Source: an uncultured Chlamydiales bacterium
Lineage (GTDB): Bacteria; Chlamydiota; Chlamydiia; Chlamydiales; Rhabdochlamydiaceae
Assembly (NCBI GenBank): GCA_963700985.1
Contig: OY969554.1
Location: 288,001 to 352,000 of the forward strand
DNA length: 64,000 nt
Direction: 5' to 3'
Both the position numbers and the translations under genes were made by a program. The notes under the pieces were generated by a model that was not told the origin of the DNA, did not search any database, and saw nothing but the letters and a program-made list of their open reading frames with translations. Position 1 is the first letter of the stretch. Each line of letters opens with the position of its first letter. Below, one piece after another: positions 7,256 to 11,880 of this stretch.

Positions 7256-7840
7256 CTATCTGCTTTGAACGAGAATTAGAGAGGGGGAAAGGGGGCGATT
7301 AAGCCAGCGGTGATGACAGACGCCCCACTTTGTGGAGGGCAGGGGAGTAAGCAGTTGAAGAAGAGCTTCTTCCTCGCGTTGCCCTTCAGGATGACCTGGG
7401 TAACAGGCCAGACTTATCACCCCTTGAGGGGGTAAAATATCTAAAGATTTTTTTACGCTTTCTAGGGTGCTATCTACTTTTGAAGTAATTTCTTTATTTC
7501 CGCCAGGGAGGTAGCCTAGATTGTAAACAATAAGTTTAATTTTTTTCTCTAGAGCGAGAGGGGGGAAATTCGCATGAGATTGCAAAAAGAGGTGGATTTT
7601 AGCCATTTGGCTAGGGGAGAGATGTTCTTCTAAAAGAGCGCGTGTTCGGGCTAGAGCCTCTTCTTGGATATCCAATCCAATTAACGCACCTTCTTCTCCG
7701 ATCAGCTGCGCTAACAGTAACGTGTCTTTGCCGTTGCCGCAGGTGGCATCGACTACGCAATCGCCCAGCTGCAAGAGCTGCTTCCAATAAATATGTGCTA
7801 ATTCAACAGCTGAAGAAAAAAGTGCAAAATCTCTGTGCAT
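7256..7840 (-). CDS. Class I SAM-dependent RNA methyltransferase (YtqB/MnmM-like)
   Basis: VVDATCGNGKDT, LDIQEEAL, YNLGYLPGGNKEITS, YPGHPEG. Confidence 0.88.
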   Translation of the reverse strand: MHRDFALFSSAVELAHIYWKQLLQLGDCVVDATCGNGKDTLLLAQLIGEEGALIGLDIQEEALARTRALLEEHLSPSQMAKIHLFLQSHANFPPLALEKKIKLIVYNLGYLPGGNKEITSKVDSTLESVKKSLDILPPQGVISLACYPGHPEGQREEEALLQLLTPLPSTKWGVCHHRWLNRPLSPSLILVQSR

Positions 7841-7871
7841 GCCAAACACTATAAAGGAAGTATGAATTATC

Positions 7872-7962
7872 AAGGATGAAGGATGAAAAGAAGAAAGAAA
7901 GATTTGCCTGCCTCTTTTCTTTTTCTTCTTTTCATCCTTCCGAATTCATACTTCATCCTTTC
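7872..7962. repeat. Short-period palindromic intergenic repeat (AGGATGA type)
   Basis: aaggatgaaggatgaaaag...cttttcatccttccgaattcatacttcatccttt. Confidence 0.65.
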
Positions 7963-8012
7963 TTTCAAATTCTGTCTGTTGTACACTTATTCAAGTAATT
8001 TATTTTTTTAAT

Positions 8013-8086
8013 GGGGTATTAGCTCAGTTGGTTAGAGCGCCACGTTGACATCGTGGAGGTCAGCTGTTCGAGTCAGCTATATCCCA
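8013..8086 (+). tRNA. tRNA-Val(GAC)
   Basis: GGGGTAT/ATATCCC acceptor stem, AGCTCAGTTGGTTAGAGC D arm, CCACG-TTGACAT-CGTGG anticodon arm, GTTCGAGTC T loop; CCA not encoded. Confidence 0.96.
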
Positions 8087-8099
8087 ACCCCGCCATATC

Positions 8100-9650
8100 A
8101 TGGAGACATTAAACTGTTCAGTAGAAGAGCTTCGGCAGATAGCATCTAAAGTGCTGGCTGCAGCTGTTCTTGAATTATTTCCTGAAACACTCATCGTCTC
8201 CTCTCATCTTACCTCTCAAGGTTTTTGTTGTGATTTTGTTTTCCCATTTCAATTTACCACTGAGCTGCTTAGCTTAGTTGAAGATCGCATGGGGCAGATT
8301 TTACGCGACAAACGCGAGGCTAGGGTTTTTGAAATGGTGCCCGTTTCGGCGGCTGCCTTTTTTGAACACCATGGCCAGCCTCTTCTTGCTGAAAAGGTGA
8401 GGAATCAGGGCGAGCCCCTTCTCACACTTTGCCAAATTGGCGAGTATGTCGACTTCTGCCCCAATGAACTCTCATTTGAACATAGCAATGAGATCAGAGC
8501 TTTAAAGCTTCTGACAGTCTCTCAGAAGCAGCGATATATGGGATATTCGGTCACACAAATCGGCGGTACAGCTTTTTTTGAAAAAGATGAACTCAAAGAG
8601 TTTTTAAAACGCCGTGAAGAATTTCCTCAAAAAGATCATCTACTTTTAGGCGCAGAACTCGAACTTTTCTCTTTAATCGAGGAGCGCTGCGTTTGGCATA
8701 AGCGAGGCGAAAAGCTCAGGCAGCTACTCGTCGAACGTTGGAAAGAGGAGCTGCTTCAGCAAAATTTTGAATCTATTTTGACCCGTGAGCTTGGCACAGA
8801 TCTCACCGCTAACCACAGCAAATATTTTCTTCTCAGACAAAAAAGTCATGCCCGATTTGTGGAATTTTCCAATGAGATGCCACCCCGTCGTGAAGAGTGG
8901 CAGCGGGGCTTGCTGACTCCAGAGCATCCAACTTGTGATCTAGCGCACGTCTTTTGCACTTCGGACGACCTTTTCAATATATGTATTTCTTCCTTGCAAA
9001 TCATCTGGAAGATGCTTAAAATTCTCGATTTTAAGTTTCGAGTTGTCATCTGCTTATCTCGTGGTACGCATAAACGCGAGCGAGATGCTAATCGTCTTCT
9101 TGAAGAAGCTCTACGTGTGCAAGGCATGCCTTATACTGTAGAAGAGCGCTCTCGAAGATACTCGGGTCCCACTGTAGAAGTGCGGATCCAAGATGGCATG
9201 GGGCAAGAATGGGCAGGTCCGTTTGTCGGCGTCGATTGCCGCCAACTCGTTCAAGAAGAGATTGTTGTTTTCTCGCTGTTTAATTCACTAGAGCGCTGTA
9301 TAGCTCTCTTGCTTGAACAAGGCGATGGAGAACTTCCCTTGTGGCTTGCACCTGAACAGGTGAGAGTCGTCGGGGTAAAAGAGAATGAATACGCCACGGA
9401 GATCAGCCAGCTTCTTCACGAGGCAGGCATAAGATCGACGCTTGACATAAGAGGCGATAAGTTAGCAAAAAGGCTGCATGAAGCCTTGAGTAGAAAGATT
9501 CCATGGCTCGTGGTTGTAGGAGAACGCGAGAGAAAAGATCAGCTCATTACCGTGCGATCTTTTTCCTCATCCGAACCAGAAGAGATGAATGTGGAAAGTT
9601 TTATTCAGAGAATATTGACAACAGAGGTAAGCAGCGTTGAGAATCAATAG
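8100..9650 (+). CDS. Degenerate threonyl-tRNA-synthetase-like protein (catalytic motifs eroded)
   Basis: ThrRS architecture ([56 protein letters not shown] anticodon-binding domain) in thrS position, but lacking KPMNCP and HRA motifs. Confidence 0.85.
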
Positions 9651-10158
9651 AGAAATTCGCGCTCCAAAAGTGCGTGTAATCGACAAAGATGGCGGCCAGT
9701 TGGGCGTGCTTTCGCTTTTGGAAGCCCTCATGAAAGCCGAAGAGGCGGGGCTCGATCTAGTTGAAATTTCTGCCTCGGCTGACCCTCCGGTTTGTAAGAT
9801 TATTGACTATGGTAAGCTGCGTTATCAGCAAACTAAGAAAGAGAAAGAGAGCAAAAAATCTCAGCACCAAGTCAAAGTTAAAGAAGTTAAGTTGAAGCCA
9901 AATACAGATGAACATGATGTTGGAGTAAAACTCAAACACGCCAGAGAGTTCATTGTAAAAGGCAACAAGGTGCGCCTCACTTGTGTCTTCCGCGGAAGAG
10001 AGATGATGCACCCTGAATTTGGTCAAAAAATTGTACACCGTATGTGTGAAGAGCTTTCAGACATCGCAACTCCTGAAGCTCCACCAAAGATGATGGGACG
10101 CAGCCTGTCTGTGGTTTTAGCACCTGGTGCGAAAAAGAAAGCAGCGAACACTGGTTGA
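9637..10158 (+). CDS. infC: Translation initiation factor IF-3
   Basis: [40 protein letters not shown] start with GAGGT RBS and an in-frame TAA three codons upstream. Confidence 0.97.
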
Positions 10159-10183
10159 TAGAGTTTATTAAGGAGAGCAAACC

Positions 10184-10378
10184 GTGCCAAAGATGAAAAG
10201 CCGTAAGGCGTTTAAATCAAGATTCAAAGTCACTGGAACTGGCAAACTTTTACGTCAGCGTCCAGGACGCCGTCACAAATTGACGAAGAAATCAGCGAAG
10301 CGCAAGAGACATCTGAGAAAAGATGCTGTTGTGAGTGCAGGACAGACAAAAATGTACCGCCGCCTGATTAGTGTATAA
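10184..10378 (+). CDS. rpmI: 50S ribosomal protein L35
   Basis: MPKMKS...RFKVTGTGK...H.LTKKS. Confidence 0.97.
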
Positions 10379-10401
10379 AAATTTAAAAGAGGAATGTTTC
10401 T

Positions 10402-10758
10402 ATGGCTAGAGTAACCAACGCCGTAGCTGCCCACAAAGCAAGAAAAAGACTGCTTAAGAGCGCTAAAGGATTTGTCGGAGATCGTAAAAATCACATTAGA
10501 CTTTCAGCAGATGCTGTATTGTCTGCAATGGCTTTCAACTACCTGCACCGTAAGCAGAAGAAGAGAGACTTCCGTAAACTTTGGATCATGCGCATTGGCG
10601 TAGGTGCAAAAATTAACGGCATCTCTTACAGTAAGCTAATCGGTGGTTTGAAATTAGCTGGTTGTGCTTTAGATCGAAAAATGCTTTCTGAGATGGCAAT
10701 CAAAGATCCAGAGAGTTTTGCTACTGTGGCAGCGCAAGCTAAAGCAGCACTCGCATAA
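10402..10758 (+). CDS. rplT: 50S ribosomal protein L20
   Basis: MARV...AKGF...KKRDFRKLWIMRI...LDRKMLSEMA. Confidence 0.97.
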   Translation: MARVTNAVAAHKARKRLLKSAKGFVGDRKNHIRLSADAVLSAMAFNYLHRKQKKRDFRKLWIMRIGVGAKINGISYSKLIGGLKLAGCALDRKMLSEMAIKDPESFATVAAQAKAALA

Positions 10759-10770
10759 TATCATCTATTC

Positions 10771-10795
10771 AAGCGGCTTCTAGAAGCCGCTTTTG
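10771..10795 (+). terminator. Intrinsic terminator after rplT
   Basis: AAGCGGCTTC-TA-GAAGCCGCTT followed by T residues. Confidence 0.7.
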
Positions 10796-10827
10796 CAATT
10801 TCTAATTAGAATCATGTAAGGTGTCTA

Positions 10828-11880
10828 ATGCACAAAGACGAGGCCGCTAGTTCAAAGACAGTCTCTGTCAAGCTATCGTCTCTTCGTCATGCCTTTCAGG
10901 CCGATCTGAATGGCGTTAAAGAGAGCAAAGATGTCGAACAGCTCAAAGTCAAATATCTGGGTAAAAAAGGCCCAATCCAAGAACTCCTCTTAGAACTGCG
11001 CAATTTTTCCAAAGAAGAGCGCCCAATCGCGGGCAAACTCATCAATGAAATCAAAGAAGAATTCGAAGCTCTTTGCAATCAAGCGGCGGCAGGCTTGCAT
11101 GAGATTCATCTCAAAGAGCGCCTTGAGCGCGAGAAAATCGATATTTCCCAGCCTGGGCGCCGTCAATTTTTAGGCCGCAAGCATCCTCTCACTTTGATGA
11201 TGGATGAACTGATTGAGATCTTTCAAGGTATGGGTTTTTCTGTGCAGATCGGCCCCGAGATCGATTCAGATTACTATAACTTCGAAGGCTTGAATTTTCC
11301 TAAGGATCACCCTGCGCGCGATATGCAGGATACGTTTTACATCACGCCAGATCTTCTGCTGCGTACACATACCAGCAACTCTCAATTACGCGTCATGGAA
11401 AGCCATGCGCCACCGTTGCGCATCATCTGTCCTGGCACTGTTTACCGCAAAGAGAACATCAGCGCTCGCTCGCATGTCTTCTTCCATCAGATTGAAGGTC
11501 TGTATGTAGACAAGGACGTTTCTTTTGCTGATCTTTTTGCCACCATGAACGAATTTTGCAATAAGCTGTTCAAAAAACATATTCCCACACGTTTTCGCCC
11601 TAGCTTTTTTCCTTTCGTCGAGCCCGGCTTAGAACTCGATATCCAGTGCACCTCTTGCGAGGGAAAAGGCTGCCGTCTCTGTAAGCAAACGGGTTGGCTT
11701 GAAGTTCTGGGTGCTGGCATGGTCCATCCGGAAGTGCTGCGCAATGGGGGAATCGATCCAGAAATCTACTCTGGCTTTGCTTGGGGAATGGGCATCGAGC
11801 GCCTCACCATGCTACGCTACGGCATCAAAGATATCCGTCAGTTTTTCGATAATGATATGCGCTTCCTTGCGCAATTCTAA
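10828..11880 (+). CDS. pheS: Phenylalanine--tRNA ligase alpha subunit
   Basis: HPARDMQDTFY, LLRTHTS, FHQIEGL, FRPSFFPFVEPG, GFAWGMGIERL. Confidence 0.98.
   Translation: MHKDEAASSKTVSVKLSSLRHAFQADLNGVKESKDVEQLKVKYLGKKGPIQELLLELRNFSKEERPIAGKLINEIKEEFEALCNQAAAGLHEIHLKERLEREKIDISQPGRRQFLGRKHPLTLMMDELIEIFQGMGFSVQIGPEIDSDYYNFEGLNFPKDHPARDMQDTFYITPDLLLRTHTSNSQLRVMESHAPPLRIICPGTVYRKENISARSHVFFHQIEGLYVDKDVSFADLFATMNEFCNKLFKKHIPTRFRPSFFPFVEPGLELDIQCTSCEGKGCRLCKQTGWLEVLGAGMVHPEVLRNGGIDPEIYSGFAWGMGIERLTMLRYGIKDIRQFFDNDMRFLAQF

Follow-up and report, generated by a model that had tools for sequence, protein, structure and literature searches.

HisZ, the accessory subunit of DNA polymerase gamma, SLIMP, and the HisRS-like domain of GCN2 are class II synthetase folds that are maintained by selection without aminoacylation, and they serve binding or regulatory roles, typically as a dimer or with a partner. 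To our knowledge, none of them derives from threonyl-tRNA synthetase (ThrRS), bears an editing-type N2 domain, or resides at an ancestral locus after displacement. As for ThrRS itself, PMC4787780 describes the duplicates T1 and T2 of Anabaena, which form hetero-oligomers, and PMC9437257 names T1/T2 and vertebrate ThrRS-L as ThrRS duplicates, both active. In a full-text search of the literature outside subscription journals and supplements, including passages of the synthetase-paralogue reviews PMC5388404 and PMC9437257, no account of a ThrRS homologue devoid of catalysis was found for Chlamydiae or any other bacteria. Here, we describe a protein of this kind, termed pseudo-ThrRS, which is encoded by an open reading frame (ORF) with an ATG start (8100..9650, forward strand; 516 aa plus the stop codon). 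The window, i.e., the whole stretch of DNA analyzed in this study, is 64,000 nt in length and corresponds to positions 288,001–352,000 of the forward strand of contig OY969554.1 of an uncultured Chlamydiales bacterium (Rhabdochlamydiaceae; GCA_963700985.1). Anabaena T1/T2 and vertebrate ThrRS-L resemble pseudo-ThrRS in being a second ThrRS-type gene in a genome but are catalytically active, while pseudo-ThrRS appears not to be. The explanation that we prefer overall, with a probability of roughly 0.6, is that pseudo-ThrRS is the displaced native thrS of its locus, retained by selection as a pseudo-synthetase that serves as a non-catalytic dimer partner in tRNA-Thr handling.

We aligned pseudo-ThrRS with the canonical ThrRS of the same genome and scored 22 key residues, given in E. 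coli numbering. Six of the 22 (D180, C182, H385, S517, E519, and R520) were retained in an uninterrupted ORF, in agreement with the first-pass annotation of this DNA, which had regarded the gene as encoding an intact but catalytically eroded ThrRS homologue. Among the zinc ligands Cys334, His385, and His511, all of which were present in each of the 84 canonical sequences introduced below, His385 alone remained. In class II motif 2, R363, E365, and R375 have become P, R, and T, respectively; the threonine/adenylate contacts D383, Y462, K465, Q479, and Q484 have become L, S, T, A, and G, respectively; and the editing histidines H73, H77, and H186 were gone, leaving D180 and C182 as the sole remnants of the editing site. 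All of the altered motifs listed in the first-pass annotation were recovered in the comparison with the canonical ThrRS: HTSAH and DLCRGPH in the editing domain have become QIASK and DFCPNEL, the KPMNCPG loop reads LTANHSK beside a deletion of approximately 37 residues over the zinc/threonine loop, and FYGPK and WQCGTVQLD correspond to YSGPT and WAGPFVGVD, respectively. The segment HRALFGSIER, likewise listed in the annotation but with its register off by one residue, has lost its His and Arg and kept ER in the ten-residue counterpart; class II motif 3 (GSxER) is thereby retained as NSLER. The two motifs shared by trans-editing factors of the AlaX/ThrRS-editing type, HxxxH and CxxxH, were both lost. 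As the residues for zinc, threonine, ATP, and editing are gone, neither the synthesis of Thr-tRNA nor the editing of Ser-tRNA appears possible, and ThrRS-type catalysis is excluded as far as a sequence can exclude it.

Despite its degenerate active sites, the protein is predicted to fold as a ThrRS. The AlphaFold2 model based on a 146-row family alignment had a pLDDT of 94.3 and a pTM of 0.90, and the top matches of Foldseek in PDB were full-length bacterial ThrRS (1qf6_A with an E-value of 1.3e-40 and a TMq of 0.74, and 1nyq_B with a TMq of 0.78) at approximately 21% identity. The model, the Foldseek matches, and the Pfam match agreed on an N2 domain, a class II core, and a class IIa anticodon-binding domain (ABD) arranged as in ThrRS. 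Pfam detected HGTP_anticodon (PF03129) alone (residues 420–506, 62.1 bits), and no match was found to TGS, tRNA_SAD, or tRNA-synt_2b; the earlier statement that the N-terminal TGS domain is missing is consistent with this result. NCBIfam thrS (TIGR00418) matched at 189.9 bits, below its cut-off of 383.65. A phmmer search against PDB sequences matched ThrRS in two stretches, residues 8–216 (N2/editing; i-Evalue 1.5e-14) and 269–505 (the second half of the core and ABD), with the best match to 6vu9 (E-value 3.5e-37) and a match to E. coli 1qf6 (7e-32).

From the N-terminus, an N2-like domain derived from the editing domain occupies residues 1–160 (8100..8579, forward strand as for all domains; the boundary, drawn from phmmer, the alignment, and conservation, is approximate). 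It is followed by a linker helix at residues 161–180 (8580..8639; conserved, and assigned by DSSP to a helix at 162–178 in the model), a degenerate class II core at residues 181–412 (8640..9335; alignment, conservation, and the complex model), and the ABD at residues 413–516 (9336..9647; PF03129 and alignment to 1qf6). Compared with bacterial ThrRS (E. coli 1qf6 and S. aureus 1nyq), pseudo-ThrRS retains the fold, the DH-LG linker, the WxPxG/motif-1 region, the Arg and Glu of motif 3, an ABD with two of the three anticodon contacts (E477 and R486), and the genomic position before infC. On the other hand, it differs from them in the absence of TGS, the six key residues left out of 22, the loss of the zinc site, the threonine pocket, motif 2, and the editing histidines, the deletion of approximately 37 residues, and the score below the NCBIfam cut-off.

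The first-pass annotation expected a working thrS elsewhere, and a search of the 2.07-Mb genome found it. A single gene scored above the thrS cut-off (contig 1, 1542149–1543801, 655.1 bits), and the two other, weak matches of the thrS model were serS and hisS. This canonical thrS lies 1.25 Mb from the pseudo-ThrRS gene and encodes a protein of 640 aa with TGS, tRNA_SAD, tRNA-synt_2b, and ABD and all of the 22 key residues. Judging from these features, the charging of tRNA-Thr falls to the second, complete thrS.

We then asked which of the two genes is native to the genome neighborhood. Loci of other phyla were retrieved with a pattern from a 20-row alignment that also fits canonical ThrRS, and 80 of at least 600 matches were kept, a set that is no gauge of taxonomic range. 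tRNA-Val(GAC), a canonical thrS, and infC were found in this order in the records labelled as a deltaproteobacterium, Binatus, Eisenbacteria, Kiritimatiellia, Krumholzibacteriia, Desulfobulbales/Desulfobulbus, and Theseobacter, and the canonical thrS of these loci kept 22 of 22 key residues, except one with 21. The adjacency of tRNA-Val and thrS is old and widespread, because the order is common to ten records of distant phyla (L053, L054, L058, L063, L064, L077, L085, L093, L103, and L123). A canonical thrS devoid of TGS (572–595 aa) precedes infC in Verrucomicrobiota, Lentisphaerae, Victivallales, and Kiritimatiellia. These TGS-less ThrRS resemble pseudo-ThrRS in starting at N2, in lying upstream of infC (with tRNA-Val(GAC) ahead in one Kiritimatiellia record), and in a shared segment of ten residues, but they possess all of the 22 key residues (21 in one Victivallales record) as opposed to the six of pseudo-ThrRS.

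In a tree of 66 rows (LG+C20 PMSF, quick search), in which the sampling is thin and biased by the pattern, the dead copies occupied one side of a branch with an SH-aLRT of 100 and a length of 1.14. In this limited sample, the working chlamydial ThrRS formed a clade (100) that was joined by the rows of Clostridia, Fastidiosipilaceae, and Sedimentisphaerales with a support of 98, and the TGS-less clade (100) stood apart from it. We further conducted an approximately unbiased (AU) test on constrained searches with iqtree2 (37 of the 66 rows and 574 columns under LG+F+G4), for which the rows were selected so that dead copies with shorter branches were kept and every clade was represented. The best likelihood was obtained when the dead copies were grouped with the TGS-less clade (lnL −32027.3, p-AU 0.80), followed by the free fast search (lnL −32053.8, p-AU 0.22). 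The alternative tree uniting the dead copies with working chlamydial thrS, as expected for a recent duplication, was rejected (lnL −32099.9, delta lnL 72.6, p-AU 0.0023). Taken together, architecture, position, and topology indicate that the locus probably still carries its native thrS in the form of the dead gene, with the working thrS belonging to another lineage. The word paralogue in the first-pass annotation, in the sense of a spare copy, is thus at odds with the synteny, the TGS-less architecture, and the topology tests.

Pseudo-ThrRS belongs to a family of similarly dead copies. A word-indexed search returned 1097 proteins with E-values of 1e-5 or smaller among 7997 scored candidates, and an exhaustive HMMER search of 1.84 billion representatives returned 391 with E-values of 1e-30 or smaller, the best 150 of which were 168–612 aa in length. 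We aligned 262 of the returned proteins with the canonical ThrRS of the genome, and the key-residue scores of these 263 sequences were bimodal: 179 keep 2–9 of the 22 residues, 84 keep 18–22, and none keeps 10–17. In the 179 dead copies, Cys334 was never found, His511 was found in two, and no sequence had two or more zinc ligands. For motif 2 and the adenylate, R363, E365, and D383 were kept in 19, 29, and 3 of the 179, respectively. TGS was absent from all of the 179, and ABD was present in 166 and lacking in 13, some of which are fragments. The source names of the members, where given, were Chlamydiales, Chlamydiota, or Chlamydiae, and the match in ESM Atlas was the family's own cluster only, which is named 'hypothetical protein' and has Chlamydiota as the commonest taxon. 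The source annotations varied among 'threonine--tRNA ligase', 'threonyl-tRNA synthetase', 'hypothetical protein', and 'tRNA ligase C-terminal domain-containing protein', and counting these proteins as ThrRS would be wrong. One record labelled as Verrucomicrobia (L072) carried a dead ThrRS of the chlamydial type (439 aa) after tRNA-Val, together with an initiation factor 3 (IF3) 71% identical to that of the window; its label or bin may be wrong.

The family has residues of its own. Eighteen columns were conserved in at least 75% of the 162 dead copies of at least 470 aa, with the same residue in less than 25% of the 84 canonical ThrRS: M79 (99%), N83, H90, Q93, A97, K166, K170 (96%), I296, S297, S298, Q300, I302, E360, S392, A402, L403, R422 (96%), and L455. 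In the protein of the window, the position of N83 is occupied by S. K166 and K170 lie in the linker, beside a DH shared with canonical ThrRS, and the core carries an ISSLQ-type helix specific to the family at 296–302. Some of these residues, together with the remnants of the former active sites, bear on the idea that pseudo-ThrRS remains catalytic through a different chemistry or on a different substrate, for instance, with an N2 pocket remodelled for another aminoacyl-tRNA or with a core reaction that requires no zinc. D180 and C182 of the editing site persist in 133 and 86 of the 179 dead copies, respectively, and H90, Q93, and N83 are newly conserved in the N2-like domain, where they would lie near the former editing Lys156 of the ThrRS structure. 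In motif 3, Arg, Glu, and Ser are kept in 157, 149, and 137 of the 179, respectively, and the first two of these would also suit an enzyme. However, neither H73 nor H77 has a uniform counterpart in the family, one position being occupied by Q, R, L, H, or N and the other by E, K, A, or V, and the rarity of R363, E365, and D383 given above is hard to combine with an active core. Moreover, the residue aligned with the adenine-stacking Phe is Pro here, the active-site loop is deleted, and no catalytic domain was detected in pseudo-ThrRS by Pfam. We thus regard a new enzymatic activity as highly improbable.

The reading frame of pseudo-ThrRS is maintained. As the first-pass annotation had noted, the 516-aa ORF is free of internal stops, for which the chance is (61/64)^516, or approximately 2e-11. 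The short-read contigs from three independent metagenome runs that cover parts of 8100..9650 contained no insertions or deletions relative to the window; the sequencing runs found, six in number, all derive from DNA metagenomes. A database protein from another assembly (P0002, 451 aa) is 99% identical over residues 1–328 (window 8100–9083) and wholly divergent thereafter, which is explained either by an assembly error or, if the strain is a near-identical one, by a frameshift; one independent contig across 9030–9180 is identical to the window. Across the order, the dead copy was intact in 94 of the 103 matches listed. The copy in another genome of the same genus (G003), with 12 stops, was considered as evidence for decay and dismissed: IF3, L20, and PheS are also broken there, and this assembly is probably rich in indel errors.

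The substitution pattern of the gene was examined in five genomes of the genus. Under the GY+F3X4 codon model on a tree, omega was 0.166 for pseudo-ThrRS as compared with 0.038 for thrS, 0.041 for infC, and 0.032 for rplT. By the Nei-Gojobori method, pS was saturated (0.63–0.78), and pN was 0.20–0.38 for pseudo-ThrRS versus 0.065–0.136 for the working thrS. The least saturated pair (G004 and G005) had a dS of 1.34, a dN of 0.233, and a dN/dS of 0.17, and the dN of pseudo-ThrRS was 2.7 to 4 times that of thrS. By domain, omega was 0.180 for the core and 0.171 for ABD. Pseudo-ThrRS evolves approximately four times faster than its essential neighbors and nowhere near neutrally; the simple decay that the first-pass annotation would have read from a dN/dS near 1 does not agree with the ratios well below 1. 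Dead-copy proteins could be aligned across the order with E-values of 1e-40 to 1e-200, while synonymous sites are already saturated within the genus. We are therefore confident that the dead copy is not drifting: in most of the order, its ThrRS fold is kept by purifying selection, and the copy carries characteristic residues that are absent from working ThrRS. HisZ, the accessory subunit of DNA polymerase gamma, SLIMP, and the GCN2 domain share with pseudo-ThrRS a class II fold retained without aminoacylation. Like other pseudoenzymes, pseudo-ThrRS unites a synthetase fold devoid of catalytic residues with long purifying selection (rough values, as dS is saturated).

The arrangement of the locus raises the question of whether the ORF is needed as a protein. 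tRNA-Val(GAC) is encoded on the same strand at 8013..8086 (Rfam RF00005, 66.8 bits; 8012..8089 by ARAGORN), and the distance from its end to the ATG is 13 nt by Rfam, as stated in the first-pass annotation, or 10 nt by ARAGORN. The 13-nt spacer (8087..8099, forward strand), read from the sequence, has no purine run resembling a Shine-Dalgarno sequence. At the other end, the last 14 nt of the ORF overlap infC for IF3 (9637..10158, forward strand), the apparent start of which is TTG at 9637; the overlap had been noticed in the first-pass annotation as well. The rest of the conserved cluster, rpmI, rplT, and pheS, follows at 10184..11880 on the same strand. The order of tRNA-Val(GAC), the dead gene, infC, rpmI, and rplT was found in 19 of 20 related loci, and the twentieth is cut at the start of its contig. 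In 24 related loci, 23 of which have the tRNA, the distance from tRNA-Val to the first in-frame start was 5–29 nt in 22 of the 23 and 64 nt in one, and no evident Shine-Dalgarno run was seen in the spacers. The stop of the pseudo-ThrRS gene fell between −23 and +11 nt from the aligned N-terminus of IF3 in 19 of 23 related loci. A scan of 7700–10900 for promoters and terminators gave matches no commoner than those in shuffled sequences. We consider that tRNA-Val and the pseudo-ThrRS gene are probably co-transcribed and that the ORF is translated from a very short leader. Given the place of the ORF between the tRNA and infC, the near absence of a leader, and the overlap of its stop with the infC start, the translation of pseudo-ThrRS is probably coupled to that of IF3.

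Such an arrangement could in principle reflect an ORF without any function of its own, the frame of which is kept open for ribosomes to read through to infC or for the signals of infC, and which is slowly eroding. The short spacers without an evident Shine-Dalgarno sequence and the close spacing of stop and IF3 agree with this idea, as do the graded erosion and domain loss described below, the in-frame stops in some copies, and the elevated dN. On the other hand, an omega near 1 would then be expected, in conflict with 0.166 and with 0.143 in a genus lacking ABD (see below). It also conflicts with the alignability of the proteins across the order despite saturated synonymous sites, the conservation of family-specific residues at 90–99%, and the fold predicted at a pLDDT of 94. 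Furthermore, four of the 23 loci keep the ORF intact with a gap of 72–98 nt before infC. A mere carrier accounts for the open frame but not for omega values of 0.14–0.17, the family-specific residues, or the confident fold, and we find it most unlikely.

To see how widely the dead gene is distributed, the family profile was run on 401 genomes sampled from the phylum, each related to that of the window at the level of the order or below. Every scored genome was matched, as canonical ThrRS also scores approximately 400 bits, and the number of matches per genome is therefore the informative figure. Two or more matches were found in 81 of the 89 genomes of the window's own family. Two were found in all of the 46 genomes of a family with genomes of 2–3.6 Mb, among which are the best-scoring and longest forms (580–606 aa). 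Three short forms of 391–461 aa (G022, G007, and G014) had no Pfam domain. In at least four genera of the window's family, ABD has been deleted exactly at the domain boundary; the removal is regarded as clean because infC begins 20–75 nt past the end of the core in these short forms. In six genomes of one ABD-less genus, tRNA-Val, an ORF of 389–458 codons from stop to stop, and infC are kept, and the omega of the ORF is 0.143 as compared with 0.048 for infC. As the ABD-less orthologues are under selection, we assign the function common to the family to the core together with the N2-like domain. In one genome of another family (L044), tRNA-Val is followed by an unrelated ORF of 236 aa and then infC.

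The fate of ABD bears on the proposal in the first-pass annotation that pseudo-ThrRS was kept for binding tRNA or mRNA, and on the related possibility that it is a stand-alone RNA-binding regulator, the ABD of which binds tRNA-Thr or an anticodon-like mRNA operator and represses or sequesters it, comparable to the action of E. coli ThrRS on the leader of its own gene. According to PMC6430810, Arg583, Glu600, and Arg609 of E. coli ThrRS bind the anticodon or anticodon-like loop. In the alignment to 1qf6, Glu600 and Arg609 correspond to E477 and R486 of pseudo-ThrRS, both of which are at least 90% conserved in the family alignment (A1). Canonical ThrRS has 15 ABD columns with a conservation of at least 90%, and seven of these persist in at least 70% of the dead copies; ABD is recognized by Pfam, and its omega of 0.171 indicates constraint. 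The retained contacts support this part of the proposal where ABD is present. The clean deletion of ABD in at least four genera, the three short forms without a Pfam domain, and the open frames with an omega of 0.143 in the ABD-less genus speak against ABD as the reason for which the whole family was kept. In addition, Arg583 is replaced by His, and the net charge per domain gave no RNA-binding signature, that of ABD being a little below the canonical value. The leaders of the working thrS, inspected by eye in 19 genomes with no genome-wide scan, differed between genera and showed no conserved anticodon-like hairpin that could serve as an operator. A regulator acting through ABD by itself is, in our judgment, unlikely.

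Apart from ABD, the surface used for dimerization in class II synthetases appears to be preserved. A complex predicted for residues 236–640 of the working ThrRS and residues 175–516 of pseudo-ThrRS scored 0.77, a value attained in 116 of 157 solved complexes but in only two of 215 mismatched pairs, and the best of three controls scored 0.00. Across the runs, which scored 0.81, 0.20, and 0.77, the contact agreement was at least 81%, and the pLDDT of the partner was at least 82. The predicted interface is the class II motif-1 surface (191–207, 224–232, 241–242, 258, and 275–276) and includes the near-invariant W199. As ThrRS homodimers are among the solved structures, the passing score is a likeness to ThrRS dimers; in the model, the dimer surface is still ThrRS-like, and the score speaks neither for binding as such nor for a heterodimer over a homodimer.

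Based on the above, the displaced native thrS may have become a partner without catalysis. The native, TGS-less thrS of the tRNA-Val/thrS/infC/rpmI/rplT/pheS cluster would have lost charging and editing, and its product would use the class II motif-1 surface to form either a homodimer or a heterodimer with the working ThrRS. In the lineages retaining ABD, the protein could additionally hold tRNA-Thr, or an RNA mimicking it, by the anticodon arm without charging, and such pairing and holding could tune the activity of ThrRS or the availability of tRNA-Thr. This mechanism, i.e., a non-catalytic dimer subunit that in ABD-bearing lineages also holds the anticodon arm of tRNA-Thr, is inferred and should be taken as tentative. 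A more specific version, in which the displaced native thrS is a 'prozyme-like' dead ThrRS subunit that pairs with the working enzyme and tunes charging, while near-leaderless translation coupled to infC ties in the supply of IF3, seems doubtful to us. If it were true, pseudo-ThrRS would represent the first pseudo-synthetase of ThrRS origin and would exemplify, in bacteria, the regulation of a live aminoacyl-tRNA synthetase by a dead paralogue.

Several results weigh against the displaced native thrS being a selected dimer partner in tRNA-Thr handling. As to its origin, the branches are long, the model in the AU test is simple, and the free search scored below a constrained one and was thus not exhaustive. 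As to selection, the saturation of pS leaves the omega values rough, and the omega of 0.037 for N2 is unreliable with a tree length of 25.7. Among the matches listed, one or two in-frame stops were found in nine of 103 dead copies versus one of 47 canonical genes; given these stops, the gene is dispensable in some lineages. The dead gene was found in none of the 29 scored genomes of a family with genomes of 1.0–1.4 Mb, each with a single match. The erosion is graded, a 613-aa form being matched by tRNA-synt_2b and ABD of Pfam and the protein of the window by ABD only, which also fits a slow reduction. As ABD-less orthologues are open and selected, the function common to the family cannot depend on ABD, nor on RNA binding by it, and Arg583 has been replaced by His in pseudo-ThrRS (His460) and in 61% of the family. 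Finally, the complex prediction fell to 0.20 in one run out of three, and conservation at the interface did not exceed that of the remaining core (0.307 versus 0.404, permutation p of 0.98, 146 members, with buried and exposed positions pooled).

In the case of the displaced native thrS, the history can be read from the genomes: an ancient operon position was held by one synthetase, a second took over, and the displaced native gene survived the radiation of the order intact, selected, and dead. Further domain loss in some genera and the complete loss in the small-genome family belong to this history as well. These genomes offer a natural series for asking what use a synthetase fold has once catalysis is gone. 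In four genomes of that family (L045–L048; 1.1–1.2 Mb), without tRNA-Val at this site, the region upstream of infC carries an ORF on the opposite strand, which is nusB-like by eye (no family search was made).

Other features were observed around the locus of the window. The TTG that appears to start infC is located within the final codons of pseudo-ThrRS. Such a start of infC at a codon other than ATG is reminiscent of the autoregulation of IF3 in E. coli. Upstream of tRNA-Val, a divergent ORF on the minus strand (7256..7873) reads as methyltransferase-like by eye, no family search having been made. Between this ORF and tRNA-Val, a long, near-perfect hairpin is present at 7864–7961, for which the Rfam matches were sub-threshold miRNA precursors only (best 32.4 bits against a gathering score of 62).

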